Shown here: positions 1,309 through 17,645 of the stretch, piece by piece
Numbering within the stretch: the first letter of the stretch is position 1
How the letters are laid out: each line of letters starts with the position of its first letter
IMG/VR virus record: IMGVR_UViG_3300026206_000005
Location: 1 to 26,889 of that record
Direction: 5' to 3' (one strand)
Origin: a virus
Lineage: Duplodnaviria; Caudoviricetes
DNA: 26,889 nucleotides
Notes under the pieces: model-generated
What the model was told of the DNA's origin: nothing
Seen by the model: the letters and a program-made list of their open reading frames with translations, nothing else
Databases searched by the model: none
Made by a program: the position numbers and the translations under genes

Positions 1309-2190
1309 ATGAAGAGGGATGGCCATATCCAGATGACGAAAAAACATTCGAGCATGAATGAAGTTTATTCAAATGTTATTACAGACTTAAGATGTGACGG
1401 GAACCTGGTAGATTCTTATCAGAACGGGTCATGTATAGGTGAAGTAATAGAACTGCTTAACTATCAGGTAACACTTACTGATCCAACCAAGCTGGGCATT
1501 GTTCATCCAAAACGCAAGTGGAAGGAGAACTATGCATTAGCAGAGTTTCTTTTTTATATAGGAGCTAACAGAAAGATAGGTAACATGTACAAGAAGGCTG
1601 CTATCTGGGAAGTTATAGCAGACGAATGGGATGAGGTTGAAAGCAATTACGGAACCTACATATTCAATTCAAACTGGTTAAGAACTGTTGAAGAGTTGAT
1701 GGTTAACCCTGGTAGTAGACGGGCTGTAATACCAATATTAAATGAAAAGCATCTCAGAAAGAACGAAAAGGATTACCCATGTACTGGATACATACAGTTT
1801 CAGATACGAGAATCTAAGTTGTACTTAACGTGGAACATGAGATCTTGTGATGCCATATTTGGTTTGTGCAATGATATGTTCTGTGCTTCAATGATACAAC
1901 AGATGATGCTAAATGAATTACGCTTAGAAGAGCATTATGTAACACTTGGAGACTTAACGTTTAACCTTGGGTCACTGCATATATACAAGAGACACTGGGA
2001 TTTACTATTTGAAGATGTAAGCGATTGGAAGAACTATTCTTTCAAGGGCTTTACGTTGAAACCAAACTGTATTCCAGATGCTGAGTTCAAGAGACGATTT
2101 GGTGTTTATCCAGAAGATGATGTCAAGGAGATAGACGCTAAAATTACAGATTTTTGTACTACTAAAATGAGGGGTGGCGACTTTGGATAA
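1309..2190 (+). CDS. Thymidylate synthase-fold enzyme of the dCMP hydroxymethylase (T4 gp42-like) type
   Basis: Motifs VESNYG, SRRAVI, DYPCT (catalytic Cys, codon 1780-1782), NMRSCDAIFGLCND and GSLHIYKRH. Asp (codon 1873-1875) sits at the position where dUMP-specific ThyA has Asn. The start may be ATG 1333. Confidence 0.85.
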   Translation: MKRDGHIQMTKKHSSMNEVYSNVITDLRCDGNLVDSYQNGSCIGEVIELLNYQVTLTDPTKLGIVHPKRKWKENYALAEFLFYIGANRKIGNMYKKAAIWEVIADEWDEVESNYGTYIFNSNWLRTVEELMVNPGSRRAVIPILNEKHLRKNEKDYPCTGYIQFQIRESKLYLTWNMRSCDAIFGLCNDMFCASMIQQMMLNELRLEEHYVTLGDLTFNLGSLHIYKRHWDLLFEDVSDWKNYSFKGFTLKPNCIPDAEFKRRFGVYPEDDVKEIDAKITDFCTTKMRGGDFG

Positions 2191-2521
2191 AGAAGATTAT
2201 ACAAAACCGATACTAGATATCGCTAAGGCAATAGTAGTAGATAGAGCTACTAACCATAACAACTATGGAGAGTTTAGCGAGAGTATGGGAAGAGCTAGAC
2301 TAATTTATATAGGTATGACTGGAAAAGAGATGCTTATAGAGGATATGTACAAGGCGTTGATTGCATTAAAGCTTGCAAGAGAGAGTTTTGTACATAAACG
2401 AGATAATCTTGTAGATACCTGTGGGTATATACAGGGCCTAGAGGACTATTACAATGGAACAAAAAGAGAAGTCGACGGACCAATTGATGAACTACCAAAT
2501 CAAGCTGAACACATCAAGTAA
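2174..2521 (+). CDS. DUF6378-like all-helical protein (possible nucleotide pyrophosphatase)
   Basis: The pattern R...YG.F...LKLAR...HKRDNLVDTCGY is typical of this phage family. RBS GAGGG overlaps the upstream gene end. Function is inferred. Confidence 0.7.
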   Translation: MATLDKEDYTKPILDIAKAIVVDRATNHNNYGEFSESMGRARLIYIGMTGKEMLIEDMYKALIALKLARESFVHKRDNLVDTCGYIQGLEDYYNGTKREVDGPIDELPNQAEHIK

Positions 2522-2699
2522 ACCAGTTCTTCACTTTCTTTTAGCTGTTCTTTCGTTTGCTGAAAAAACGCTTAAAGATAACATGGAACTACAAGACGAA
2601 GATGGATATTCAATAACTGTAGAGGAGATAGAAGGTGAACATATTGAAATTTTCACGGGTGAGGAAGGTGATACCACCGAAAAGAGCGCACTCTCTTGA
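2487..2699 (+). CDS. Hypothetical acidic protein
   Basis: In frame with track ORF 2454..2699; fills the gap between the DUF6378-like and dUTPase genes. ATG 2487 minimises the overlap. Confidence 0.5.
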   Translation: MNYQIKLNTSSKPVLHFLLAVLSFAEKTLKDNMELQDEDGYSITVEEIEGEHIEIFTGEEGDTTEKSALS

Positions 2700-3114
2700 T
2701 GCTGGTATAGACTTCTTTGTACCGTCTGATTTTAGTGTAACCAAAGTTTCACCTGGCAATAGCATTAAGATACCAAGCGGTATCAAGGCAAACATACCAC
2801 AGGGTTATGCGTTAATTGCGTTTAACAAATCTGGTATATGCACAACATTAGGTTTGATAGCCGGTGCTTGCGTTATTGATTCAGGATATCAAGGCGAAAT
2901 ACACATTCATTTGATCAATGCCTCTAAACGAGAGGTGTGGATAACTGCTGATACTAAGATAATACAATTTTTATTGATTCCAGTATCTGGTGTAGAAACT
3001 GAAGAAACTAGTATAGAGGATTTATTTATTGAAGAATCAGAAAGAAGTGCAGGAGGTTTTGGAAGTACAGGAATGGGAGCACTCTGGCCTCGACAAGCTA
3101 GTGGCACCGGATAA
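2635..3114 (+). CDS. dut: Trimeric dUTPase family protein
   Basis: All five motifs are present: DAGID, NKSG (usually RSG), VIDSGYQGE, IIQ and RSAGGFGSTG. Confidence 0.92.
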   Translation: MNILKFSRVRKVIPPKRAHSLDAGIDFFVPSDFSVTKVSPGNSIKIPSGIKANIPQGYALIAFNKSGICTTLGLIAGACVIDSGYQGEIHIHLINASKREVWITADTKIIQFLLIPVSGVETEETSIEDLFIEESERSAGGFGSTGMGALWPRQASGTG

Positions 3115-3427
3115 AGACAAACTGCCTCCGTGGTGTATCATAGATGATGGCAAAATAATAACCGAGTTTAGATTTGGCAAACACTTTGATTTGTTTTATA
3201 AACATTACAAAGATTGCTTGATGATGCTCGAGTTTAAAAAGGGCAAGTGCCCAAATTGGATTATAACATACATTGCCGCGTTTGAATTAACAATAAGCGA
3301 TCAGGAACAACCATTATGGATCAAGAATATGATCTTTCCAAATTGCCAATCGAACATCGATACGGTATATTCCCCGCAACAATTATCGGCGATAGCCGTC
3401 TTAAGGCGGGACAGCTCAGATGCTTAA
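3101..3427 (+). CDS. Hypothetical protein
   Basis: In frame with track ORF 3029..3427; GTG 3101 is a plausible start. Fills the gap before the initiator but overlaps it by 112 nt. Confidence 0.4.
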   Translation: MAPDKDKLPPWCIIDDGKIITEFRFGKHFDLFYKHYKDCLMMLEFKKGKCPNWIITYIAAFELTISDQEQPLWIKNMIFPNCQSNIDTVYSPQQLSAIAVLRRDSSDA

Positions 3428-4014
3428 TGTCTGTCCTTGCATGGCGTAACCAAAGAACAACCAATACTAGACCAATACACCTAGAAGCTTTGCAACTCAT
3501 GATGCCTATGTATACCAAGGGCAGCATACAGAACTATATGCAAGACTTGAAGGCGTACGGCTACATAGATATAACAGCAAGAGCTGGCACAACATCGTTA
3601 TACACCATCTGCGATAAGGCTGATGCACACATACAATACACGCAAAACGTAGGCAGCAGCGTAGCTAGTCAGCAGGTAGAGAGCAACGCGTCTGACCAGC
3701 TAGTCAGCAGCGTAGCTGACGCAAAGAATATAAATAATAAAAAGAATAATACAAAGTCAGTGTTTATGAGTGTGTGGTCGGCTTATCCTGAACATAGACG
3801 CAACACAATCGCCCGTGATATGAAAACGTGGAGGGAATTTGGCGATGAAGCTATTGCTGACGTGATTGTAGAAGATTTAGAGCAGCGCAAAGAATCAGAA
3901 CAGTGGACTAACGATGATGGCAAATGGATTCCAGGTCTGAGAAAATATTTAGAAACAAGGGTTTGGGAGTCGCAACCATTAAAGAAGAAAGAAAAATTTT
4001 GGAGTGAATTTTAA
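3316..4014 (+). CDS. Phage replication initiator (lambda O / replisome organiser-like)
   Basis: N-terminal winged-helix-like region (…SIQNYMQDLKAYGYI), low-complexity linker ending KNINNKKNN, and C-terminal F..VW.AYP ... W..DDGKWIPG.RKYL...VWE. RBS AGGA; coupled to the helicase by a TAATG overlap. Confidence 0.8.
   Translation: MDQEYDLSKLPIEHRYGIFPATIIGDSRLKAGQLRCLMSVLAWRNQRTTNTRPIHLEALQLMMPMYTKGSIQNYMQDLKAYGYIDITARAGTTSLYTICDKADAHIQYTQNVGSSVASQQVESNASDQLVSSVADAKNINNKKNNTKSVFMSVWSAYPEHRRNTIARDMKTWREFGDEAIADVIVEDLEQRKESEQWTNDDGKWIPGLRKYLETRVWESQPLKKKEKFWSEF
3652..3752. repeat. Iteron-like repeats plus AT-rich tract (putative replication origin)
   Basis: CAGCAGCGTAGCT at 3654 and 3705; AGCTAGTCAGCAG at 3663 and 3698; palindrome GTCAGC-N6-GCTGAC at 3703-3720; A-rich tract at 3723-3752. 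Confidence 0.65.
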
Positions 4015-5009
4015 TGGTTGATTACAAAAGAGCAAGAGAAATAGCAACGCGTTTAGAGCTTGATGAAGAACAGATTAACAAGTATTCGGAAGGAATAGAG
4101 AAGTCGTTTGTTCAATCACCTTTAATATTCGTTGATGATGCATTAAAACACCTAAGAAATAAAGATAAAAAACCAGGCGGTAGACTGCCATGGGATATAG
4201 ATTTCAGAATACTACCTAATACATTAACTATATGGGCTGGAATGAATGGGCATGGTAAAAGCCTTATAGTGCAGCAGGTCATGCTTTACCTAATGACTGG
4301 TGATTATTCAACAAGAGATGAGAAAGTTTTGTTTTGGTCTCCAGAGTTAGCACCAATATACCAGCTCGAAAGGCTAGCAAGACAGATCACTGGAGATATA
4401 TATCCAAACCCAGAGGATGCTGAAGAGGCGTGGTGTTGGTTAAACGAGAAGATGTGGATATATACCAGGGAAATAGATTGTGGGGCTAAGCAGCTTATAG
4501 CTGCAGCAAGGTATGCACAAGAAGAGTTAGGTGTAACCCAGTTCGTTATAGATTCTTTAATGAAGGTTAATCTAGGTTCAGAACAAAGAAACATATATCT
4601 AGCTCAGAAGAACTTTGCAAACATATTGGCTAATGTCTGTAGAGATACAGGACTATGCATACATCTGGTAGCCCACGTTAGAAAACCAGATGATGAAACC
4701 AAGAGATGTAGTAAGTATGACATAAAGGGAGCTTCAGAGTTAACAGATCTTGTTGATGCAGGCTTCATGGTTCATAGAAATAAGACAGAAGAGAAATCAA
4801 GGGAAGGCGGTAATACACCTGCAGCTCCGCAAGCTGCATTAGAATGTTTTAAGAATAGGCATGGAGGTTTTGAACCAATGTGCGGTTTAGATTATGGCGA
4901 ACAAAGTATGAGATTTCACGACTATGGAAGAGAAGAACAAGATTTTTATGAAAAATATGTTGGAGAGAAAAGTACACCTTTTGACGGAGCTTTTAATGAG
5001 AACCAGTAA
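4014..5009 (+). CDS. SF4 (DnaB / T7 gp4 / Twinkle-like) replicative helicase, no primase domain
   Basis: Walker A GMNGHGKS, Walker B FVIDSL, LVAHVRKP, DIKGASELTDLVD and KNRHG. Confidence 0.88.
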   Translation: MVDYKRAREIATRLELDEEQINKYSEGIEKSFVQSPLIFVDDALKHLRNKDKKPGGRLPWDIDFRILPNTLTIWAGMNGHGKSLIVQQVMLYLMTGDYSTRDEKVLFWSPELAPIYQLERLARQITGDIYPNPEDAEEAWCWLNEKMWIYTREIDCGAKQLIAAARYAQEELGVTQFVIDSLMKVNLGSEQRNIYLAQKNFANILANVCRDTGLCIHLVAHVRKPDDETKRCSKYDIKGASELTDLVDAGFMVHRNKTEEKSREGGNTPAAPQAALECFKNRHGGFEPMCGLDYGEQSMRFHDYGREEQDFYEKYVGEKSTPFDGAFNENQ

Positions 5010-5298
5010 TTGGAAAAATGTAGAACGAGAAGCTGCAAAGCTTTTCGGTGGAACAAGAACCGGTTGCAATGGCGAAAGCAGAAGAGATGTGGAACATCCA
5101 ACATTGTCAATAGAAGTAAAACACAGAAAAGTACTTCCAGATTGGTTGCATTCAGCTATGGAACAGGCTATCAGAGAAGCAGAACATAGGAAACCAATAG
5201 TGTATTTACACGAACGATATATGAAATTTGAAGATGGTTATGTGGTCTTGCGAGCTAAGGATTTTAAAGATTTGTGCCCCGATATAATAAAGAAATAA
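4996..5298 (+). CDS. PD-(D/E)XK nuclease, probable Holliday junction resolvase
   Basis: ATG 4996 with RBS GGAG (in frame with track ORF 4924..5298). ERE.AK, RRDV...IEVK and P.V..H pattern. Confidence 0.75.
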   Translation: MRTSNWKNVEREAAKLFGGTRTGCNGESRRDVEHPTLSIEVKHRKVLPDWLHSAMEQAIREAEHRKPIVYLHERYMKFEDGYVVLRAKDFKDLCPDIIKK

Positions 5299-5300
5299 AT

Positions 5301-5343
5301 GATAAAATTAGGCTTTTATCTTAAATGCTAGGCATGATATAAT
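5301..5343 (+). promoter_or_regulatory. Extended -10 promoter with an inverted repeat over the -35 region
   Basis: TGaTATAAT at 5335-5343; inverted repeat GATAAAA-N6-TTTTATC at 5301-5320; RBS AGGAGA downstream. Confidence 0.65.
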
Positions 5344-5369
5344 TATTTTTTAACTCAGGAGAATAAAAA

Positions 5370-6227
5370 TTGGGAGAATACACTAATAAACACAACTATC
5401 CCGAATGGTTATGTAACGTACTGAAGTATAACCCATATACTTCTGGTCCAAAACGGTCAGATATCAGTACCACTCAACTAATCGACTCACCACAGGTATT
5501 ATCGTTAAGAAAAGCCAATAAAGATAATATCGTAGAAGATGTAAGCGACAGAACTTGGGCAGTATGGGGAAGCGCTGTTCATGCTATTTGTGAGTACGCA
5601 AACATGTCTAATTCTGACGTGTTGGTAGAGAAGCGGTTTCATAAAGATTACGGTTCACACTCAGTCAGCGGTCAAGTTGATGTATATGATATTAAAAATA
5701 ACATCATATACGATATTAAAACTGTAGGCGCATTTGCTCTTTCATATGGCATAAAACCAGCGTGGACTAACCAACTAAATGTTCTAGCAGACTTAATGAA
5801 GAGCGATGGTTGGAAAGTATCTGGATTAGCTATCGTAGCGTTCTCTAAGGACTTTAACGAGAAGAATGTTAAACCTGGTTCTACGTATCCAGAAGGCGCT
5901 TTAAAGGTTATACATGATATACCATACTGGCCTGCAAGCGAAACCAGGTGGTACATAGACAAAAGGTTGCAAAGGCACTTCTTTGATGAGCACATGTGCG
6001 ACAGAGAAGAGCGATGGCAAAGCGAACGCAAAGTCGCTGTAATGAAGAAGAAGAAGGTTAGAGCTGTAAAACTCTTTGATACAGAAGACGACGCAAACGA
6101 TTTCATCATAATACAAAAAGACCAGGAAGATCTTTATATAGAAGATAGACCTGGTTTTAACATGCGATGCAGCAAGTATTGCAATGTCAAAAGGTTTTGT
6201 CCACAATACACCAAGGAGCATAGATAA
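5370..6227 (+). CDS. Cas4-like / PD-(D/E)XK recombination exonuclease
   Basis: GSAVH, VEKR, SGQVD...YDIKT and QLNV motifs; C-terminal Cys cluster (MC...RCSKYCNVKRFC). TTG start with a strong RBS. Confidence 0.82.
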   Translation: MGEYTNKHNYPEWLCNVLKYNPYTSGPKRSDISTTQLIDSPQVLSLRKANKDNIVEDVSDRTWAVWGSAVHAICEYANMSNSDVLVEKRFHKDYGSHSVSGQVDVYDIKNNIIYDIKTVGAFALSYGIKPAWTNQLNVLADLMKSDGWKVSGLAIVAFSKDFNEKNVKPGSTYPEGALKVIHDIPYWPASETRWYIDKRLQRHFFDEHMCDREERWQSERKVAVMKKKKVRAVKLFDTEDDANDFIIIQKDQEDLYIEDRPGFNMRCSKYCNVKRFCPQYTKEHR

Positions 6228-6745
6228 TGGTTAAAGAGATAGTAAATGTATATCATGAAACAACAGAATTTACCTGTATGTTTCCTAATCTTGTAGAAAC
6301 TGAGAAGTTTCAAGAACAGGACACAGGTATGTATTCTATCACAATGTGCTTCGATAAAGGAGATGAAGGCGTAAAGGAAGCCTTAGATGAGAATATCGAA
6401 GAAGCCAAGAATAATGACGAGAAAGTAGCTAATGCTAAAGAACCGTACATACCTATTAAAGACGGGGATGAAATGGGTAAGGAATGGTCTGCTGGTCGTT
6501 GGGTATTGAAAGCTAAAACAAAGTTCAAACCAAAGATAGTAAGCAGAGTGGGAGGTGAGTTAAATCCAGAGTCTGTACACAATGGATCTATATGTCGAGC
6601 TCACATTGTATTCCGTCCGTTCATCGCTGGAACTAACAAAGGTGTTACCTGCTCCTTGAAAGATCTTCAGTTTATATCTGAAGGTGATGGCGTTGGTGGT
6701 GGAGTACCTACATTTTCCCCATTAGATGATGATGTGCCATTCTAG
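6227..6745 (+). CDS. Single-stranded DNA-binding protein (T7 gp2.5 / DUF2815-like)
   Basis: FP.L..., YSIT, PIKDGD, GS.CR and NKGVTCSL..LQF motifs; acidic-aromatic C-terminal tail DDDVPF. Confidence 0.85.
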   Translation: MVKEIVNVYHETTEFTCMFPNLVETEKFQEQDTGMYSITMCFDKGDEGVKEALDENIEEAKNNDEKVANAKEPYIPIKDGDEMGKEWSAGRWVLKAKTKFKPKIVSRVGGELNPESVHNGSICRAHIVFRPFIAGTNKGVTCSLKDLQFISEGDGVGGGVPTFSPLDDDVPF

Positions 6746-7605
6746 TGGCAAATGCTCACGGTCGCTCTATCGATAAGACTTTCTTATCGTTGGATAAAGC
6801 AGAAGAACGTGGGATTTTACATCGGGATTACATAGCCCATTGCTTAAGATGGAGCCATGTGGCTATGTATCTCCGACGTAAAAACCGTTATAAAAATGCT
6901 AATATCCTGGATATAGGACCAGGCAAAGAGATTCCTCTTGCAAGAACGCTATATGTAAACAGAACAACGCCCAAGACATACACCGCTGTTGATGTCTCAA
7001 AGCTTGAGATGCCGGCAATGTTTGAGAACGCTAATTGGAAACCTACCAATTTGATATCCAAAATGGATATTTGCGAATTGGATTTAATGACGCTTGACTC
7101 GGCTCCTAACATTATTGTTTGTTTTGAAGTGATTGAACATGTAGAGCCGGGTCATAGCAGAAGAATGCTAGAAAAGATGTACGATATGTTACGCTTTCAA
7201 GATAATGGGCCAGATTTTGATGATTCTGTTATATTTCTAAGCACTCCAAATTGGGATCCAAAGGTTGGTGCAGCAGGTAACCACGTAAACGAAATAAGAC
7301 ATCAAGCGTTAGGAGCCGTAATAGAAGATATTGGTTTTAATATCGAGGCCAGATACGGAACCTTCGCATCTCAAAGAGATATAAAACCACTCATGACCGA
7401 AGAAGAGTTATCGCTCATGGAGAAGATGAAAGAATATTACGACAGTAATTATGTTTCTACCATATTTGCTCCATTGTTTCCTGAAGTTTCTAGAAACTGT
7501 ATTTGGAGACTGTCAAGGAATCAACAAAAGAAGAAGTATCCATATCTGTATAATGTAGAAAAACCTTGGACTTCCTCAGATAAATGGAAAGATCTTAATG
7601 GATAG
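6745..7605 (+). CDS. Class I SAM-dependent methyltransferase, substrate unknown
   Basis: Motif I ILDIGPG, acidic AVDVS, IVCFEVIEHV and FLSTPN; N-terminal HRDYIAHCLRW. No DNA-MTase catalytic motif (NPPY, DPPY or PCQ). Confidence 0.85.
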   Translation: MANAHGRSIDKTFLSLDKAEERGILHRDYIAHCLRWSHVAMYLRRKNRYKNANILDIGPGKEIPLARTLYVNRTTPKTYTAVDVSKLEMPAMFENANWKPTNLISKMDICELDLMTLDSAPNIIVCFEVIEHVEPGHSRRMLEKMYDMLRFQDNGPDFDDSVIFLSTPNWDPKVGAAGNHVNEIRHQALGAVIEDIGFNIEARYGTFASQRDIKPLMTEEELSLMEKMKEYYDSNYVSTIFAPLFPEVSRNCIWRLSRNQQKKKYPYLYNVEKPWTSSDKWKDLNG

Positions 7606-9451
7606 CTACCAACAGTATATTCACAAGAGTAGGTATGCTAGGTATTTACCTGGTAAAAACAGGAGAGAAAACTGGGCAGAAACAGTTAGTAGATACATTA
7701 CTTTTTTTGAACTTCATTTAGATATTAAAATTCCTAAAAGAGTTTATGATTCTATTTACAATCTAGAGGTTATGCCATCTATGCGCGCTTTTATGACGGC
7801 TGGCAAGGCGTTAGAAAGAGATAACGTAGCAGGATATAACTGCTCATACTTGCCAATCAACAGTTTGAGAGCGTTTGATGAAACGTTGTACATACTTATG
7901 TGCGGTGTGGGCGTTGGTTTTTCTGTAGAACGGCAGTATATATGTGAACTTCCAGAAGTCGCAGAAACGTTACACCTTAGTGATACAGTTATAACGGTTC
8001 GAGATAGCAAGATCGGTTGGGCATCTGCATACAAAGAATTAATATCGATGTTGTTCAGCGGTTCTATACCGTCTTGGGATTTGTCCAAGATTAGGGCAGC
8101 AGGTAAGCCACTCAATACATTCGGTGGTAGAGCTTCTGGGCCAGAACCATTAGATAGATTATTCAAGGTTACTGTAGGGGTGATTAAAAAAGCTCACGGA
8201 AGAGAGCTTACATCTATAGAATGTCATGACATTATGAACTACATTGGAGAAGCTGTTGTTGTTGGTGGAGTTAGGCGCACAGCAGAGATATCTCTAAGTA
8301 ATCATTCTGATGGACGCATGCGCGATGCTAAAATGGGTCAGTGGCCTGTTGACAACCCACAAAGGGGTTTAGCTAACAACTCTATTTGTTACACGGAGCG
8401 TCCAGACGTTGGCGCTTACATGAGAGAATGGTCTGCACTGTACGAGTCTCGCAGTGGAGAGAGAGGTATATTCAACAGACAGGCGTGCAAGAACATGTCT
8501 CCAGAAAGAAGAGACACAGATTATGACTTCGGGACGAACCCGTGTTCAGAAATAATTTTACGCCCGAATCAGTTCTGCAATTTATCTGAAGTAGTAGCAA
8601 GACCTGACGATACTAAAATGTCTTTGTTGAATAAAATAGAGATTGCTACTATATTGGGAACTCTGCAGGCTTCGTTAACTAATTTCAGATACCTATCAAG
8701 TAAGTGGAAAAAGAATACAGAAGAAGAAGCATTGTTAGGAGTTAGTATAACTGGTATATACGATTGTCCTTACCTACTTGAGAGCGAACCGAAGCAGTTA
8801 GAGGAATTAAAAAACCATGCAATCAAGATCAATGAAAGATGGGCAAAGAATATCGGTATTAATCCAGCTGCTGCTATTACTTGCGTTAAGCCTTCTGGTA
8901 CCGTTTCTCAGCTTACTGATTCTGCTAGCGGTATTCACCCTCGCTACAGCGAATACTATATCCGCCGCGTACGCAACGATAAAAAGGATCCTTTATCGAA
9001 AACTCTTATAGATCAAGGAATTCAATACATAACAGATCCGTATAACGATAATGCCTATGTGTTTGAATTCCCAAGGAAATCACCAAAAAGCGCAATAACA
9101 AGGAAGGAGATAAACCCGATATATCAACTGGGGCTGTGGAAGAAGTTTGCTATTTCCTGGTGCGAACACAAACCAAGCATGACGTGTTATGTTAATGAAA
9201 AAGAGTGGCCAGAAGTAGGATCTTGGGTATGGGCTAATTTTGATATAATGAGTGGAGTCAGTTTTCTACCAAGTGCTGACGAAGGTCATATATATCAAGC
9301 CGCCCCTTACGAGGATATAACCGCTGCGGAATATAAAGTACTACTCAAGAAAACTCCTGTTGAAATTGATTGGTCGCTACTATCAGAAGAATCTGATAAC
9401 ACCACCGCAACACAAGAGTTGGCCTGTGCCGGCGATAAATGCGAAATCTAA
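7598..9451 (+). CDS. nrdJ: Class II adenosylcobalamin-dependent ribonucleotide reductase
   Basis: YNCSY, GGVRR, GTNPCSEI, FCNLSEV, TCVKPSGT and C-terminal CAGDKCEI. No small subunit adjacent; 617 aa. Confidence 0.92.
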   Translation: MDSYQQYIHKSRYARYLPGKNRRENWAETVSRYITFFELHLDIKIPKRVYDSIYNLEVMPSMRAFMTAGKALERDNVAGYNCSYLPINSLRAFDETLYILMCGVGVGFSVERQYICELPEVAETLHLSDTVITVRDSKIGWASAYKELISMLFSGSIPSWDLSKIRAAGKPLNTFGGRASGPEPLDRLFKVTVGVIKKAHGRELTSIECHDIMNYIGEAVVVGGVRRTAEISLSNHSDGRMRDAKMGQWPVDNPQRGLANNSICYTERPDVGAYMREWSALYESRSGERGIFNRQACKNMSPERRDTDYDFGTNPCSEIILRPNQFCNLSEVVARPDDTKMSLLNKIEIATILGTLQASLTNFRYLSSKWKKNTEEEALLGVSITGIYDCPYLLESEPKQLEELKNHAIKINERWAKNIGINPAAAITCVKPSGTVSQLTDSASGIHPRYSEYYIRRVRNDKKDPLSKTLIDQGIQYITDPYNDNAYVFEFPRKSPKSAITRKEINPIYQLGLWKKFAISWCEHKPSMTCYVNEKEWPEVGSWVWANFDIMSGVSFLPSADEGHIYQAAPYEDITAAEYKVLLKKTPVEIDWSLLSEESDNTTATQELACAGDKCEI

Positions 9452-10254: not shown

Positions 10255-10317
10255 GATCGGGGACTCGACGCAAATATTTACGCAGGGAGAGGACGCTTTC
10301 TCTGCGGAGCCCCGATC
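10255..10317 (+). other. GC-rich nested stem-loop at the convergence of both arms (atypical terminator or structured RNA)
   Basis: GATCGGGG(A)CTC pairs with GAGCCCCGATC and encloses CGCAGGGAGAG-gacg-CTTTCTCTGCG. No U-tract on either strand. Confidence 0.6.
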
Positions 10318-13300
10318 TAATTCTTAAGCCATCCTTTTGTTACTTCATGAAACTGTTTGTTCATATCATCTCTGGATTTTCTTCCATCCAATAATATACC
10401 AAACTCTACCTCGACATATTCATCGAATTCTTTCTTGCTCATGCTGTTGGTGGAGAGATATTCCTTTCTTCTCTCATCAGCAGTCATACCCTTGTACCTC
10501 TCTTTCGCGCTCTCTCTAACTTTTTGTAAAGCCTCATGCTTACGCTTGTATGACTCACTTTCTTCGCTCTTGAGGAAGCTACTCTGATCTGCCCCTTGAG
10601 ATTTTAGATACTGATTAATCATACTAGCTTTAGACTTGCGACCATCAGGGTTAAACCCAAGTTTAGTACGCATGTGCTTGTCTAGTTCACGACGATCCAT
10701 ATCAACTATCTGATCCTTAGACAGTTTTATTCTTTTTGCAGCATCGTTAGTAATAGAGTCTAGTAGTTTCTGTCGTTTAGCTTCCTTTGTTGCTGCTTTC
10801 TTTTCTTCTCTTTTTTCAAGAGTTCGTTTTCTTATTAGCTTACCCTTTTTATCTTTCGTATAATACGGATCCGCGCCCAAAGCTTCACGTATAGGTTTAG
10901 ATTTAGTAAGAGGTATGGCTCTAGCAAGTCTACCTTCAAGATCAAGTTCTTTACCCTGAGCCACATCAGCTCCAGCTTTACCTATGTTTCTAAATTGCTT
11001 ACCCATCGGACCTATAATATAATCAAGCATATCATCATAGGGATCCTTACCTTGCCAAGACCAATAGTTAGGTGTTCCTATTTGTACTGCAACAGATCCT
11101 AATGGGCCCATCAAACCTGTTCTTTCGAAATCTTGTATAAACTTGGCCCAATCTGGAGCCTTTTCTTCCCACGGGTCTTCATCTTCGCCATACTTGATAA
11201 GGTATGCTATCGCCTGAGCAAACTGTACAGCACCGTACATGGCTGCGGCGGTTCCAAACATGCCAGCTATTTGCTTGCTCTGTTGATACTTCTTGGAAAC
11301 GCCCTTACCTTCGGCAAACCTAACTCGTTGAGCTATAGTATTTATGAAGGTATTAGCAAATGTCGTAATGAAAGATTTGAACAATAAGAACGGTGCAAAC
11401 CTAGGATCTCTAAATACCTTGGGTAAACTACCTTCGCTCGGTAATGTAACAACAGACTGAACAAACCTATGTGCTGGACCAGCCAAATCTAATTTAAACT
11501 CTGGTGGTACGTCATGTATCTGTCTATGGCCAGCATCATACCACCTTACTAACTCATTTATTTCACTGTTGCTTAGTCCAAGATATTTGAGATTGCTCTT
11601 GATTTGAGCTACGGTAGAATCTAATTTAAAACCCTTACCTCTCTTAGCTTTCGACAATGCCTTAGCATCAGCTACTATATTCTGGTTGAGGTTAGTTAAC
11701 GCCATTAACTGTTGCATCTGAGTCATGGTCGTTAAAGCTGTAACCTCGAAATACACGTCCATGTTAAGCATGGCCCTAACTTGTCTTGCCCTGAACCTTC
11801 CTTTCTCTAGGTTTCCAAGACCGTACAGCCTGTATAATGCTTTAATCGGGAACGAATTACCAGTTGATCCTACACCAGCTTTAATAAAACTGGGCCCAAC
11901 ATATCGTTGAGCTGCAGCCTCTCCTAAGTTAGCTAGATCGTACAATCCTAACTGCCTTAGCATGGCCGCTCTCTTTCCCATCCTAGTCTTAGGATTGAAG
12001 TACCCCTTCATAGCCTTCCCAGTTAACAGCTTGTGCATACCGTTTAAGCCACGTAGAACGGCAAAGGTAGATGCTCCAAGAATGTTTGTCGCAAACTTAG
12101 CAGGGTTTTTAGTTCCTAATGCTGTAGCGGTAAGAAACTCTGGCATAGACGCAAGAGATACCAGTGTGAGACTAGCCATGGTAGTAGCGTTCATTGCAGA
12201 CTGCAATACCTTTCTACCTCTAGTAGGTATGGTATTGACCTTGTATCGATGGTTGATGATATCCATCAACTCGTCTATATCCTTTATAATGTCTTCAACG
12301 TTAATTAAGGTAGTACCGGCATTCTTCCTATTATGCTCAGCTACTTCTTTTCTTATATCGCGCTTCAGTTTATTTAAGTTTTCATTTCTATGACCAAATA
12401 ATTCGGCATAAACAGTTTTCTCTATAGCCTTGTCGATAAACCTAGGAATAATCGCTTGGTAATCGTTGAGAAGTAAATCTTCAAGCTGTTCTCTGGATAT
12501 CTCCCTTTCTATTTTTTCAAATAATTCTTGTTGACTTTTTATACTGCTTTCACCATCTAGGCGCGCCTTAATAGTAAAGTCACCAGACACAAAACCGCCA
12601 CTGCTTAAGATAATGTTATAAGCATCCGTAGCATCGTACTTTTCGTTGGCAGCATCATCCACTATACCTATACCGTTAAGTAGATCCATAAGTTTCCTTC
12701 TACCTTCAGGTGAAGCAACCTTATCTACATCAAATACTCGTGGAAATACGCCACCATCCAAAGGTCTGAGCGAAAAGTCTTCAGTATGTTTTTTACCAGT
12801 CTTGTCTGACCAGGCATATATTTTTTCTACAGCTACTTTTAATTTTTCAGCAGCTTCAGCTACCTTTCCATTTTCTGGAATTATACCCCTAGAGAAAAAG
12901 TCTGTCAGCTGCTGGTTTATTTTTCTAGATATAACGCCGCCTCGATTGGTAAGCGCATCTATCTGCTGTTGTATTTCAAACCTGAATTCACCCAAAGCCA
13001 TAGACTTCTTCTGGACATAGTCTCTTCCAGACTTCGTCTCCTTCTCTCTTAGCTTATGGTGTGGAGCTCTAAGTACTGTATCTGCTACGACACCAGCTGT
13101 TTTAGAAGCTCCTGAGTGACGTCTTACAGTTTGTGCAGCCTGACTATAGAGGAATCCCCAAAGAGATCGTAGTGTAGTTCTCTCTCTAGCTTTAGGTCGT
13201 GATGTCTCGTCACTACCGGTATACTCCTGTTGCGCCGCATCGTCCGCCTTTGTTTGTTCCTGAGAGCTTGGCGATGTATAGGCAGCACCAGTTTCATTGT

Positions 13301-16300
13301 ACTGTTGTTCGTTATCAGGGTTTACTCCTGTTTGGTTGTTAACAGCATCTCCAAAAGCTTCTTCTATTGTTCTTTTCTTTGGTAATCCTTTTTTCTTGGG
13401 TTCTGACCAAGCATTAAGCCAAGTGCTTTCGTCACTGTATTCTGGGCCGGCATCTTCTTCTATCTCAACCGGGCCTAATATGCCAACTATTTGTTCTTCT
13501 AAATCATGAATAGCATTACCAGTATTAATATCTTCTCTTCCAGTATATTCTTCAATATCTAGGTTATAAAGTCTTTCGGCGGTTTCAGTAAAAGAAACCA
13601 AATTTAAGTATTCTTCCAGGTTTGTTTTAGCTAAATGTTTAAGTCTTTGCTGTAAATCTTTTGCAGGGTATTTAAGAGAAAACACTGATTCTAAAGGAAT
13701 CATTAAGTCACTAACTGGAGCAATCCTTTCTTCTGTGGAAAGGGTTTTAGTTATATCTTTTATTACGTCTTCCGATACGTTATTGTTTCTCAGTATCTCA
13801 TTAGCATATTTGAACTTGTCTGGATTAACAATCGCAGACTCACCTCTAGGTGCTTCCATTTTTGCTTTTATTTCTCTAGCTCTAGCCGTAAGTTTTTCTT
13901 CTTCAGACAGTACAGCTTTTTCACCGCGTAGTATTTTGGTTGCGGTTAAGTTTTCTCTAACTGCTCCAGTAGAATAAAGATTATCTACTAAATCGTTAAG
14001 ATCATTCTTGCCAACGTTAATTCCGACCTTGGCTAGAATCATTTTGACTACTCTCTTGAATTTAGTAACCCAAGTTTCAGTATTCATAGAATCACTTTGA
14101 TACGCTAATAATTCAGAAAACATGTTCCACACCCTTTTCGATGCTTCTAATCTTTCTGATGATGTAGCAGCTGGTTTAGCTGCATCCCTCATTAACATAT
14201 CTAAAAACTCTATAGCCTCTTCATTACTCTCGATAATGACTGGCTTACCTTCTATAGAAAGTGTAGATAAGCCAAGACGTAAGAAAGCGTTTTCATCTTT
14301 GCGCATAAAATCAATCATTTCTTTTCTATACGCTTTATATAACTCTCTCCTGAACTTACCTAATTCTTTCTCGCTAAAGTTTGTACCAGTGCGATCTAAT
14401 ATTGCTCGCTCCCAAGCAAAGTGATTAACGTGGGTAATTTCGTGTTGTAGAACTGATCTAATAGCATATTCTTGAAGTTTTTCTTTTCCTATTTTCTCCA
14501 TTAACTCTTCTGGAGAAATACCAAGACGCGTTGCTTGCTCACCTATAACTTCAGTAATACCAGTTTCGTCAAATCGGGCTAAGTTTATAACTATTCTATA
14601 ATTACCGTGCAGTAGGCGCTCCTTGGCCATACCAAACTTACCCTTAGAGCCAGCTATAAACTCATCAGCTATAAGAATAGTAAATTTATCATCAAGATTT
14701 GGAACATATGCAAATTCTACATGGACTTCTGCTGTATCTCTACCACGAAGATTTAATTTCTTTATGATTCTTTTGTAGTCTATGCCGGGTAAATGCTCTT
14801 TACCGAAGAAAACATATTTTCTCTTGCCTGCAGTTTTTTTCTCGTCTATTACTTTAGCTTCGGGGTCTTGGTAAGCATTTGTAGTTTCAGGCTCGGTACT
14901 AACGGCAGCATCTACAGTAGGAGTATCTTCTTTTACTATTTTTTTGTGCTCTTCAATATCGCGCTGCGTATCCTTAATGTGTTGTTTTTGTTCTTCAATC
15001 TCCTTGTCTATTTCTTCAAGCTGTTTGTTATATTCTTTTTCGGTAGGATAAAGATCAGTATCTGGCGTTTGTCTTTGAAGAAGTTTCAGAAATTTTTCTT
15101 GTCTAACTAAATATTCTTCAAGTTCTGGTATTCTAGATTCTTCAAATAGCGGTCTTGTTTCTTTTTCTTCGCGTATAATTTCACCTTCTAATGGTTCTGC
15201 TTTTTTGATAGCTATTTCTTCTTCGATAGCTTCTATATTGTTCTTCTCTATTTCAATATCTTCAGCGATTTCTTCAGCAGAATAATCATCTTCAAACCCT
15301 TCAGGAGGAATTCCCGCTTCTAAAGATTTTAATCGATCTCTAGCAGATTTTAACTGTTGATCAAGTTCGTTAAGACCTGGAATCTTATCAGTTAATTCTT
15401 TTGTCCTTGCTATTTCTTCTATTTCTTGCTGTTTCTCATCAAAGGCTCGCATAGCCTCCCGTTTTCTTTTGTTTGTATTGTCTTCCTGGTCTCTTAATTC
15501 TTGTACCAGCTCTACGTTGTTTTGTATTGGTTGGCGCCTTCGCTCTCTTTCTTCTAGTATTTTCTGCTCTTTATCAAATTCTTGCCTAATTTTTGTGCCG
15601 GGAGCACGATCAGGATCATTCTGATCTCTTAAGTTTTGTATTTGACCTATGTTGTTCTGTATTAACGGGCCTGGTCTAGACTGGCTGATAGGTTCTTTTC
15701 TAAAACCAAAACCGTCAGTGCCTAAAATTTCAAAGGCTCGATCATAAGGCCTATTCATATAATCGTAGTTTTCTATTTCTTCATACCTCATCGGGCCGCC
15801 ATCATCACCCGTATTATCAAAATCTCTCTCTACGTTTGTAAATACTGGACGTAGCTCGTCACCAACAGCATTGGTACTGAAGTTATCTTTGACATAGGCC
15901 ATTATCGCTTTGTCTACATCTATTTGAGAAACCTCTTGAGACTCAACATAATCAGGTATTAACTCTGAAATATGTACTTCGCCGACAACTTCCATACCTA
16001 TATCAGGAGCACCGCTATATGAAGCATCGTATACGGTTACTATTCCGTTGTCTGGGTTAAACTCGACATCGATAGTATGTTCAAAACCCGTTGTTTCTCC
16101 CGGGTATTGATCCTTCCAACCAGATACGTCGAAGTTGTATGCAGACCACAGAGGTGGATTTGCATAATCAAACCTAACTAAAGTAGCGGGTAAACCAGCC
16201 TGTACTGGAGCGCTAACAGCAGCTTCGGGTGCTAAATCAGGAAGAAGATCGGTAGGACGAACAGTTGCAGCAGCTTGAGCCATATCCCTAGCTTTTCTAA

Positions 16301-17645
16301 GGAACTCTCTTCTTCTCATGTCTATGTGCTCCCCAGTCGCGCTAGGAGCAACTTCTTGAGCTGGCCCTTGGGGTAATGCAGGTAGGTTAGGTATTCCACC
16401 TGGCGCGATAGGGGGAGTTCTGATTGCTTTAACTATATCAACAGCGGCTGGAGGAATAGCCATTGCCCCACCAGATACACCACCGCCTAAACCTTCTAAT
16501 GCAACTTCTCCACCAAAGCCTGGAAAATTATCTGGCCCTTGATCTATAGCATGTAATGCACCAAATTCGCCAGCCATTTCACCGCCAGCTTGTAACGGTA
16601 TCGCAGCCCCTCTTCTTGTTAAGCTTTGAGCTAAGTTAGTTGTTGGGCCTCCTAGTTTTAATAACTTACCCATGCCAAAGCCGACAACCCCCTCTATACC
16701 AGCATGAGCCATGCCATACGTTCTTGCGTCGTCTAATACCTTGTTTAAAAACTCTGGTTGATCCATTAACATCGCTATTTGCTGCGGATTACTAGGATCT
16801 ACACCATATTTTTCTAAGGCTTGAGAAATACCAAATAATTGATTTATTGCATAACCGCCACCAGCGGCAGCAGCAGCGCCACCTACGCCACCGGTTGCAA
16901 TCGCAGCTAAACCAGAAAGAACTATTAGCGGAGAACTCTCCCCTACAGACTGAGCGGTTAATTGCATTGCTGCCTTAGGATTGTCTATAAAGGATTGAAC
17001 ACTGTTTAAAAACCCCTCACTTTTCATTATATTTTCAAGACCTGCAACATCATATTGCGGGCTTTTAGCTTGGTGTTCTTTTAATTCTTGAGTTGTACCA
17101 ACTAAATTATTAATAACTGTTTCAGGATCTAATCGGCGATCTCCAGCTTCCTGCATAGCAGTAGCTTGTGCTCTACCACGATATAAATTCTCGATCTCTG
17201 TTGGAACGCCTCGAGGGTAGTTTTCTGATTCCCAAGCATATTGCTCTTCAGAAGATATATCATCCCAATTTGCAGGGCGCTCATATCCAGGTATTGTAAA
17301 GGCTTGTTTTTCTAATTCAGAATTATTTATGATATCAACATACTGTTTATAATTTGCATAATCCTGAGCATCTTCTATTGCTTGCCCTTGAACAAATCTC
17401 TTAGGAAGTCTTTGAGCACCGTGTACAAAGTGAGCACCCAAGTTCCAATCTACATTTGGATTATTTTTTACAGTATTAACTACAGCAGATTCTGCGCGGT
17501 ACTTTTGAAGGTGGGGATTATGCTCGTAAGGGTTTGGAACACCCTCTTCAGCAGAATTAGGAGAGGCATGAGATGCATTTGCTACATCCATTTGATCTTG
17601 TTCGAGGTCTTTTACATACTCCTCGATTAAGAATAGATTAGGCAC
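10317..17645 (-). CDS. Giant internal virion / DNA-ejection protein with zincin-like (HExxH) domain and C-terminal HeH-like repeats
   Basis: 2,442 aa; last gene of the structural arm, after the nozzle and two smaller Ala/Gly-rich proteins. Hydrophobic Gly/Ala N-terminal region, acidic coiled coil, LQHEITH...ELLAY and a helical C-terminal region. Confidence 0.75.
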   Translation of the reverse strand: MPNLFLIEEYVKDLEQDQMDVANASHASPNSAEEGVPNPYEHNPHLQKYRAESAVVNTVKNNPNVDWNLGAHFVHGAQRLPKRFVQGQAIEDAQDYANYKQYVDIINNSELEKQAFTIPGYERPANWDDISSEEQYAWESENYPRGVPTEIENLYRGRAQATAMQEAGDRRLDPETVINNLVGTTQELKEHQAKSPQYDVAGLENIMKSEGFLNSVQSFIDNPKAAMQLTAQSVGESSPLIVLSGLAAIATGGVGGAAAAAGGGYAINQLFGISQALEKYGVDPSNPQQIAMLMDQPEFLNKVLDDARTYGMAHAGIEGVVGFGMGKLLKLGGPTTNLAQSLTRRGAAIPLQAGGEMAGEFGALHAIDQGPDNFPGFGGEVALEGLGGGVSGGAMAIPPAAVDIVKAIRTPPIAPGGIPNLPALPQGPAQEVAPSATGEHIDMRRREFLRKARDMAQAAATVRPTDLLPDLAPEAAVSAPVQAGLPATLVRFDYANPPLWSAYNFDVSGWKDQYPGETTGFEHTIDVEFNPDNGIVTVYDASYSGAPDIGMEVVGEVHISELIPDYVESQEVSQIDVDKAIMAYVKDNFSTNAVGDELRPVFTNVERDFDNTGDDGGPMRYEEIENYDYMNRPYDRAFEILGTDGFGFRKEPISQSRPGPLIQNNIGQIQNLRDQNDPDRAPGTKIRQEFDKEQKILEERERRRQPIQNNVELVQELRDQEDNTNKRKREAMRAFDEKQQEIEEIARTKELTDKIPGLNELDQQLKSARDRLKSLEAGIPPEGFEDDYSAEEIAEDIEIEKNNIEAIEEEIAIKKAEPLEGEIIREEKETRPLFEESRIPELEEYLVRQEKFLKLLQRQTPDTDLYPTEKEYNKQLEEIDKEIEEQKQHIKDTQRDIEEHKKIVKEDTPTVDAAVSTEPETTNAYQDPEAKVIDEKKTAGKRKYVFFGKEHLPGIDYKRIIKKLNLRGRDTAEVHVEFAYVPNLDDKFTILIADEFIAGSKGKFGMAKERLLHGNYRIVINLARFDETGITEVIGEQATRLGISPEELMEKIGKEKLQEYAIRSVLQHEITHVNHFAWERAILDRTGTNFSEKELGKFRRELYKAYRKEMIDFMRKDENAFLRLGLSTLSIEGKPVIIESNEEAIEFLDMLMRDAAKPAATSSERLEASKRVWNMFSELLAYQSDSMNTETWVTKFKRVVKMILAKVGINVGKNDLNDLVDNLYSTGAVRENLTATKILRGEKAVLSEEEKLTARAREIKAKMEAPRGESAIVNPDKFKYANEILRNNNVSEDVIKDITKTLSTEERIAPVSDLMIPLESVFSLKYPAKDLQQRLKHLAKTNLEEYLNLVSFTETAERLYNLDIEEYTGREDINTGNAIHDLEEQIVGILGPVEIEEDAGPEYSDESTWLNAWSEPKKKGLPKKRTIEEAFGDAVNNQTGVNPDNEQQYNETGAAYTSPSSQEQTKADDAAQQEYTGSDETSRPKARERTTLRSLWGFLYSQAAQTVRRHSGASKTAGVVADTVLRAPHHKLREKETKSGRDYVQKKSMALGEFRFEIQQQIDALTNRGGVISRKINQQLTDFFSRGIIPENGKVAEAAEKLKVAVEKIYAWSDKTGKKHTEDFSLRPLDGGVFPRVFDVDKVASPEGRRKLMDLLNGIGIVDDAANEKYDATDAYNIILSSGGFVSGDFTIKARLDGESSIKSQQELFEKIEREISREQLEDLLLNDYQAIIPRFIDKAIEKTVYAELFGHRNENLNKLKRDIRKEVAEHNRKNAGTTLINVEDIIKDIDELMDIINHRYKVNTIPTRGRKVLQSAMNATTMASLTLVSLASMPEFLTATALGTKNPAKFATNILGASTFAVLRGLNGMHKLLTGKAMKGYFNPKTRMGKRAAMLRQLGLYDLANLGEAAAQRYVGPSFIKAGVGSTGNSFPIKALYRLYGLGNLEKGRFRARQVRAMLNMDVYFEVTALTTMTQMQQLMALTNLNQNIVADAKALSKAKRGKGFKLDSTVAQIKSNLKYLGLSNSEINELVRWYDAGHRQIHDVPPEFKLDLAGPAHRFVQSVVTLPSEGSLPKVFRDPRFAPFLLFKSFITTFANTFINTIAQRVRFAEGKGVSKKYQQSKQIAGMFGTAAAMYGAVQFAQAIAYLIKYGEDEDPWEEKAPDWAKFIQDFERTGLMGPLGSVAVQIGTPNYWSWQGKDPYDDMLDYIIGPMGKQFRNIGKAGADVAQGKELDLEGRLARAIPLTKSKPIREALGADPYYTKDKKGKLIRKRTLEKREEKKAATKEAKRQKLLDSITNDAAKRIKLSKDQIVDMDRRELDKHMRTKLGFNPDGRKSKASMINQYLKSQGADQSSFLKSEESESYKRKHEALQKVRESAKERYKGMTADERRKEYLSTNSMSKKEFDEYVEVEFGILLDGRKSRDDMNKQFHEVTKGWLKN

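Follow-up and report, generated by a model that had tools for sequence, protein, structure and literature searches.

Among the described systems that modify cytosine at the nucleotide level, one of the closest to the one treated here is the glucosylated 5-hydroxymethylcytosine (5hmC) pathway of phage T4, which comprises the deoxycytidine monophosphate (dCMP) hydroxymethylase gp42, the kinase gp1, the deoxycytidine triphosphatase (dCTPase) gp56 and alpha- and beta-glucosyltransferases. For enzymes of the thymidylate synthase (TS) fold, the accessible text of PMC13326640 gives diagnostic positions relative to E. coli ThyA: N177D shifts the substrate to dCMP, an acidic residue at L143 goes with a non-methyl product and D169N with a hydroxylase, and Asp at 143 correlates with hydroxymethyl products. 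In the RNA 2'-O-methyltransferase HEN1, E796, E799, H800 and H860 bind Mg for hydroxyl methylation, as described in the available portion of PMC10781085. Here we analyse a phage locus that carries relatives of both enzymes. The window, that is, the whole stretch of 26,889 nucleotides of the IMG/VR record IMGVR_UViG_3300026206_000005, is an incomplete genome of an uncultured marine phage (CheckV 65%) encoding a TS homologue, a DUF6378 protein, a dUTPase-family enzyme and a class I S-adenosylmethionine (SAM)-dependent methyltransferase. The feature is real, its pathway genes are well linked, and the module recurs together in many unrelated phages. As its product, we predict, at an evenly balanced level of confidence, phage DNA that holds 5hmC O-methylated to 5-methoxymethylcytosine.

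Residue signature of the thymidylate synthase homologue

The TS homologue matches Pfam PF00303 (E 3e-19) and contains SNYG, KDYPCT, RSCDAIFGLCND and GSLHIYKRH; judging by the N-termini of its relatives, its true start is probably Met9 (1333) or Met16 (1354). Its best PDB match is T4 dCMP hydroxymethylase (E 2e-16), followed by CMP hydroxymethylase and by ThyA at about 1e-8, and its GLCND aligns with GFRND of T4 gp42. D155, C158, D181 and D189 fall on the positions of ThyA L143, C146, D169 and N177. The enzyme thus has Asp at 177, 143 and 169 together with the catalytic Cys, which matches the published dCMP-hydroxymethylase signature and leads to 5-hydroxymethyl-dCMP (5hm-dCMP) as the predicted product. 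With this signature in place, conversion of dCMP to 5hm-dCMP is a very probable activity. The original prediction had held that an Asp-type TS homologue acts on dCMP, a view supported by D189 and by the gp42 match, and had named hydroxymethyl-, methyl- or hydroxycytosine as the product; the first is favoured by Asp143, whereas the same residue speaks against methylcytosine and the retention of D169 against hydroxycytosine.

Three other activities have to be weighed against this signature. The Pfam and PHROG labels, and an RSCD motif as in ThyA, would suit an ordinary thymidylate synthase accompanied by a dUTPase and an unrelated methyltransferase; this is extremely improbable with gp42 as the best match, Asp177 and Asp143 where ThyA has Asn and Leu, and scores far under every NCBIfam ThyA cut-off. 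It is quite unlikely that the enzyme is a dCMP methylase producing 5-methylcytosine as in Xp12, or that it feeds the thymidine monophosphate (dTMP) pool through deamination of 5-methyl-dCMP. Such a role would agree with Asp177, with the dCMP deaminase gene that adjoins in most other backbones and with the lack of another visible dTMP source in the window lineage. However, Asp at 143 goes with hydroxymethyl products (PMC13326640, available text), the nearest TS relatives adjoin glucosyltransferases, AXL3, a cultured phage discussed below, has ThyX, and L339 and L353 have a canonical ThyA besides. Nor was a deaminase found in the window lineage, where the scans for missing functions covered 25 window ORFs (open reading frames) and 41 further ORFs from the window, its relative G001 and close relatives, with hidden Markov models of the module and a kinase query, one short G001 ORF being excluded from the Pfam scan. 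The third activity is that of a dCMP hydroxylase, with 5-methoxycytosine as the final base. tRNA offers a precedent for O-methylation at a C5 hydroxyl. TS-fold hydroxylases share N177D and an acidic 143 (PMC13326640, accessible part); the diagnostic D169N is absent from the window enzyme, which keeps D181, and from all 66 methyltransferase clusters that have a TS, and this product is very improbable.

The gene neighbourhood of the TS homologue was followed in 28 TS-baited loci, 15 of which lie outside the window lineage (L094-L108). All 15 keep the TS-DUF6378 pair and 14 also the dUTPase. A T4-type alpha-glucosyltransferase (PF11440) stands just downstream of this trio in L101, L103 and L108, and others outside the lineage have the uncharacterised family phrog_13881, the motifs of which we take to be SGNH-like. 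Further gene sets accompany the trio elsewhere. In L094 (11441-17519) it is followed by an SGNH-like protein, an inositol-phosphate synthase, an FkbM methyltransferase, a helical domain like that of hydroxymethyluracil kinases and a C5 methylase, a block that possibly encodes another hypermodification. A three-gene block beside an Asp-type TS trio in L181, L187, L340, L322 and L363 (an SGNH-like protein, an unknown 346-aa protein and a 'threonine dehydratase' resembling pyridoxal phosphate enzymes) is likely a different second step. Variants of the Asp177 enzyme with Arg or His at 143 (L313, L344, L355, L358, L360), with paired TS genes (L351, L352) or with Cys at 169 (L102) possibly make other products.

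The methyltransferase and its pairing with Asp-type enzymes

The methyltransferase belongs to Methyltransf_23 (Pfam, E 3e-8) and to a family that is large and nearly phage-only: clustering at 90% leaves 1417 relatives and clustering at 50%, with E < 1e-30, leaves 333, and the atlas clusters listed for it are 95-100% viral, which does not bear out its earlier description as an orphan. The motifs of DNA C5- and amino-methyltransferases (PC, [DNS]PP[YFW], ENV and QxRxR) are all absent, as had been noticed at the outset. E128, E131, H132 and H180 are invariant in 109 aligned sequences, and ExxEH is found in 146 of 146 distinct full-length ORFs. The first three of these residues align with EVIEH of HEN1, and H180, from its spacing, would be the counterpart of HEN1 H860. 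The structural model (predicted local distance difference test, pLDDT, 93) has a class I fold; the top VIA fold match is 4htf (Z 19.0, root-mean-square deviation (rmsd) 3.4, 203 aligned), presumably the tRNA enzyme CmoM, and ChlM (Z 17.9, rmsd 2.8, 187 aligned) and HEN1 (Z 17.3, rmsd 2.6, 186 aligned, 22% identity) are also matched. In P0254 the methyltransferase is fused to a MazG-like domain, in P0264 to one of a C5 DNA methylase.

Co-occurrence with Asp-type TS homologues was the check asked for by the original prediction, and it is borne out. A TS homologue accompanies the methyltransferase in 66 of 80 methyltransferase-baited IMG/VR loci, with Asp in every readable motif; three of the other 14 have an Asp-type TS elsewhere on the contig and the rest are partial records. 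Counted over all loci collected (223 ORFs, some fetched with TS or DUF6378 as bait), an Asp-type TS is in the locus in 66 of 77 methyltransferase clusters at 90% and in 27 of 31 at 60%, an Asn-type one in none. Of the 11 clusters without a TS, ten have a flank shorter than 1 kb on one side; in the eleventh, the contig does carry the TS trio, at a distance of 58 kb. All but one of the 66 TS-containing clusters, that is 65, show the complete D143/C146/D169/D177 signature. Quick trees of the TS (82 rows) and the methyltransferase (31 rows) disagree, the methyltransferase being found with the PYD, LGND, YIND, FCND and LCND clades of TS. The window methyltransferase is 51-53% identical to copies in polA-type phages whose TS is only 26-32% identical to the window TS, which in turn is 40-47% identical to the TSs of jumbo phages. 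It follows from these discordant trees and identities that the pairing has re-formed, each time with an Asp-type TS, and a functional link, more than common ancestry, is suggested by such repeated re-pairing. Counterparts of all four window genes lie within 2.6-4 kb in the unrelated phages L347 and L128; in L128, a gut-associated locus, a SAM-synthetase-like gene (11312-12118) stands between the methyltransferase and the dUTPase.

For the second step, the HEN1-type ligand set is a sharper clue than the fold. Within the FCND clade, the gene that follows DUF6378 encodes either the methyltransferase or a beta-glucosyltransferase (L185; also L147), and glucosyltransferases occupy the methyltransferase slot where the methyltransferase is absent. 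Since a hydroxyl-bearing base is predicted upstream and the alternates are hydroxyl-capping transferases, O-methylation of 5hmC is the most economical proposal. Membership of the methyltransferase in the 5hmC pathway is highly likely, and its predicted activity as an O-methyltransferase acting on 5hmC is somewhat favoured. It is unlikely that the enzyme acts on another atom of 5hmC, giving N4-methyl-5hmC, or transfers another SAM-derived group. The co-occurrence data would fit equally, N-methyltransferases are among the fold matches and N4-methyl-5hmC has a mass identical to that of the O-methyl product; but HEN1-type metal ligands serve hydroxyl activation, the gene alternates with those for transferases that use the 5-CH2OH group, and the amino-methyltransferase motif is missing. 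Plain 5hmC in the DNA, with the methyltransferase as a linked accessory directed to another target (an RNA 2'-OH, a protein or a host defence factor), is rather unlikely. The similarity to HEN1, the genomes with TS only and the decay of the methyltransferase where the TS stays (L166 and L167) are in its favour, and against it stand the absence of Asn-type TS from all 77 clusters, the repeated re-pairing with different Asp-type clades and the methyltransferase-MazG fusion. With respect to an RNA substrate, the gene context argues against the 3'-terminal 2'-OH.

Cultured phages also carry the methyltransferase. It is present in five GenBank phage records, including AXL3 and PW916, with the gene order methyltransferase, MazG-like, kinase, TS and dCMP deaminase. 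The DNA of AXL3 resists 35 of 37 restriction enzymes and is cut only at A/T-only sites; in the accessible text of PMC7504290, its authors do not name the modification and take the TS for a dTMP synthase. A ThyX is also encoded by AXL3, in addition to this TS, which has D143 and D177. The resistance supports a modified C or G and fits 5hmC or a capped form alike.

Several observations weigh against a methylated 5hmC made by this module. With no ThyX, ThyA or dCMP deaminase seen in the window lineage, dTMP must come from the host. The best sequence match of the methyltransferase is a lysine methyltransferase, and N- and C-methyltransferases come within 1-3 Z units of the top fold matches, so that the fold alone leaves the substrate unfixed. 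In L166 (2652-2957) and L167 (6469-6774) the methyltransferase is reduced to 101 aa by an in-frame internal deletion and the TS is intact. The window methyltransferase lies 3.6 kb from the TS-DUF6378-dUTPase trio; the counted loci are not phylogenetically independent, some being TS- or DUF6378-baited. The link is also one-way, TS being found without the methyltransferase, including in the complete genome G047, which has no visible second enzyme. AXL3 resistance could stem from 5hmC alone, and phage P2559Y has the dUTPase signature described below and no TS.

Among 36 selected TS- or DUF6378-baited records without a methyltransferase in the locus, only two of them at least 90% complete, none had one elsewhere in the record. 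G047 (L200, L201), a 31.5-kb phage with TS, DUF6378 and MazG, strongly avoids C-containing palindromes (CCGG 0.00, CATG 0.06). Restriction-site avoidance was tried as a proxy for modification and rejected: the loci trended weakly (median 1.07 where the methyltransferase is present, 0.67 where it is not), and whole records contradicted this (0.35-1.11 and 0.12-0.82, respectively).

DUF6378, the dUTPase and the layout of the window

The second gene of the trio matches DUF6378 (Pfam, E 3e-8). Its model (pLDDT 79) has fold matches only among DUF6378-type viral models, and there was no PDB match by sequence or fold (best Z 5.6), no usable atlas match and no similarity either to one DUF3310 sequence in a profile comparison or to the C-terminal part of the kinase; no match to a T7 gp1.7/DUF3310-type nucleotide kinase or to a MazG-like fold came up in these comparisons. 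The available text on DUF6378 mentions it as an annotation only. Of 88 Asp-TS clusters, 48 have a P-loop kinase, 32 DUF6378, eight neither and none both. DUF6378 occurs beside MazG in 14 of them, so it is not simply the pyrophosphatase, and in L063 it takes the kinase position of a standard cassette. Its gene slot therefore tentatively points to a kinase rather than a pool-editing enzyme, a role that we would not yet call probable; this exclusion is seen in few lineages, and in jumbo phages a kinase gene could lie outside the locus. In the polA-type cassette, the deoxynucleoside monophosphate (dNMP) kinase of L046 (11438-12439) and related 330-aa kinases have an extra C-terminal domain of about 140 aa with no Pfam match there, whose motifs we take to resemble the uracil-DNA-glycosylase fold.

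The third gene is a member of the dUTPase family (Pfam, E 1e-17) with all five conserved motifs of trimeric dUTPases; in the usual numbering, motif II has K in place of R and motif III has C in place of G. Across the Asp-TS clusters, MazG is present in 64 and a dUTPase in 20, never together in the set, with one later exception (L364). This subfamily sits where MazG usually does, which makes it a candidate dCTPase. In 62 further dUTPase-baited loci, not dereplicated and with the 18 closest left out, an Asp177 TS was found in 50, a shortened TS in two and no TS in ten, and nearly all share NKSG and GACV[IV]D; this gene context suggests that such proteins form a dCTPase/dUTPase subfamily. Of the two pool-editing enzymes originally proposed, the dUTPase is confirmed as to family and DUF6378, which excludes the P-loop kinase, is disfavoured. 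A related dUTPase is flanked by two TS homologues annotated as dCMP hydroxymethylases in the cultured gut Bacteroides phage BF503P1 (L199).

The four ORFs of the original prediction are present exactly at the coordinates that it gave (Table 1), and the methyltransferase lies, as it had stated, between ssb and nrdJ, sharing 1 base with the stop codon of ssb and 8 bases with the start of nrdJ. The plus strand up to about 10.2 kb carries replication and nucleotide genes and the minus strand beyond it virion genes, among them a 2442-aa probable internal virion protein (10317-17645, minus strand) with no Pfam or PHROG match. The small ORF between DUF6378 and the dUTPase, which had been omitted before, gave no match in Pfam, PHROG or NCBIfam scans.

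Table 1. Features of the module and its surroundings in the window
Feature	Coordinates	Strand	Basis
TS-fold enzyme, predicted dCMP 5-hydroxymethylase	1309..2190	+	Pfam PF00303, PDB match, diagnostic residues
DUF6378 helical protein, candidate non-P-loop dNMP kinase	2174..2521	+	Pfam; role inferred only from gene slot
Small acidic ORF, kept within the window lineage	2454..2699	+	Cluster 15, 30 loci
Trimeric dUTPase-family enzyme, NKSG / GACV[IV]D subfamily, candidate dCTPase/dUTPase	2635..3114	+	Pfam, motifs
Replication initiator, DnaB-like helicase, RusA-like resolvase, exonuclease and ssDNA-binding protein, without DNA polymerase	3316..6745	+	Context
Class I SAM methyltransferase, HEN1-type E128/E131/H132/H180, predicted 5hmC O-methyltransferase	6745..7605	+	Pfam, motifs, model
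Class II ribonucleotide reductase (NrdJ)	7598..9451	+	Context

Near-identical DNA occurs in 20 of 24 listed runs, which come from 16 studies and are all marine or seawater metagenomes; two of them may be the source, and no RNA run is among those listed. The relative G001 (36.6 kb), with an amino-acid identity of about 70% in the genes treated here, extends from the tail-tube region across the same replication block to terminase, portal and capsid, and stops in the same gene as the window; from these two genomes, both together appear to cover the whole gene order of the lineage. The scans of this lineage found no DNA polymerase, P-loop dNMP kinase, MazG, dCMP deaminase, ThyX, glycosyltransferase or carbamoyltransferase, and no DNA glucosyltransferase gene was seen by Pfam or PHROG in the window or G001, both partial records. 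This agrees with the earlier remark that no glycosyltransferase or carbamoyltransferase is visible; the further suggestion that kinase or transferase genes could lie outside the window is not borne out, none having been found in G001, which appears to cover the remaining gene order. A lineage of the module without recognisable polymerase or kinase is new here.

Proposed pathway and comparison with known systems

In the proposed pathway, the NKSG-type dUTPase would, with slight preference, hydrolyse dCTP and dUTP to monophosphates, and the TS homologue would in all likelihood turn dCMP and methylene-tetrahydrofolate into 5hm-dCMP. This nucleotide would then be phosphorylated by DUF6378, which is conceivable, or by host kinases, and incorporated by a host polymerase, which is proposed because none was seen in the window lineage. 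Finally, the metal-dependent methyltransferase would cap the 5-CH2OH group, on the nucleotide or on DNA, and the methyl cap would play the role of the T4 glucose, protecting the DNA from restriction enzymes and from enzymes directed at bare 5hmC. For DUF6378 and the dUTPase, the roles given are guesses that can be tested. The full scheme, a widespread 5-methoxymethylcytosine made by a HEN1-like enzyme as the smallest cap that 5hmC can carry, and in this marine lineage with DUF6378 as non-P-loop dNMP kinase, a dUTPase turned dCTPase and a host polymerase, is doubtful as a whole. The literature searched, without subscription journals and bioRxiv supplements, gave no account of methoxymethylcytosine or methoxycytosine in phage or of the module; an earlier computational mention may exist.

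If true, the proposal would bring to light a natural DNA base and a nucleic-acid O-methyltransferase, both new, across hundreds of aquatic and gut phage sequence clusters, and would explain the G/C-dependent restriction resistance of AXL3. The modification would also counter defences that cut out bare 5hmC or remove the glucose from it, as Brig3/BapA do according to the accessible part of their description. DUF6378 is common in phages, and the slot analysis proposes for it a first function that can be tested; the module is directly testable in cultured AXL3 and PW916.

Like the T4 pathway, the module has a TS-fold enzyme with Asp177, Asp143 and Cys146, is predicted to act at the nucleotide level, and has a pyrophosphatase beside this enzyme and a second enzyme predicted to cap the hydroxyl. 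Unlike T4, the window lineage shows no glucosyltransferase, P-loop kinase, gp56-type enzyme, dCMP deaminase or polymerase of its own, and the window has a class I methyltransferase, DUF6378 and a trimeric dUTPase instead. The 5-carbamoyloxymethylcytosine pathway (Yang et al. 2021, PMC8670742, available text) resembles it in a TS homologue, PRA-PH/MazG, a dCMP deaminase and the addition of a small non-sugar group to the 5hmC hydroxyl; the transfer is carried out by a carbamoyltransferase there and would be carried out by a SAM methyltransferase here. In the table of that paper, the enrichment of Methyltransf_23 is no more than nominal (27 vs 1436 contigs, corrected p 1). The arabinosyl-5-hydroxycytosine pathway of RB69 and DLP3 (PMC13326640, accessible part) likewise has a TS homologue with N177D and an acidic 143, but it relies on D169N with flavin and O2, whereas D169 is kept here. 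Finally, HEN1 shares with the window methyltransferase the class I fold, the ExxEH...H ligand set and STP after strand 5; in contrast to HEN1, the phage enzyme is without RNA-binding domains, is tied to deoxynucleoside triphosphate-modification genes and not to RNA repair, and has its own invariant HRDxxAHxxRW and GTFAS motifs.

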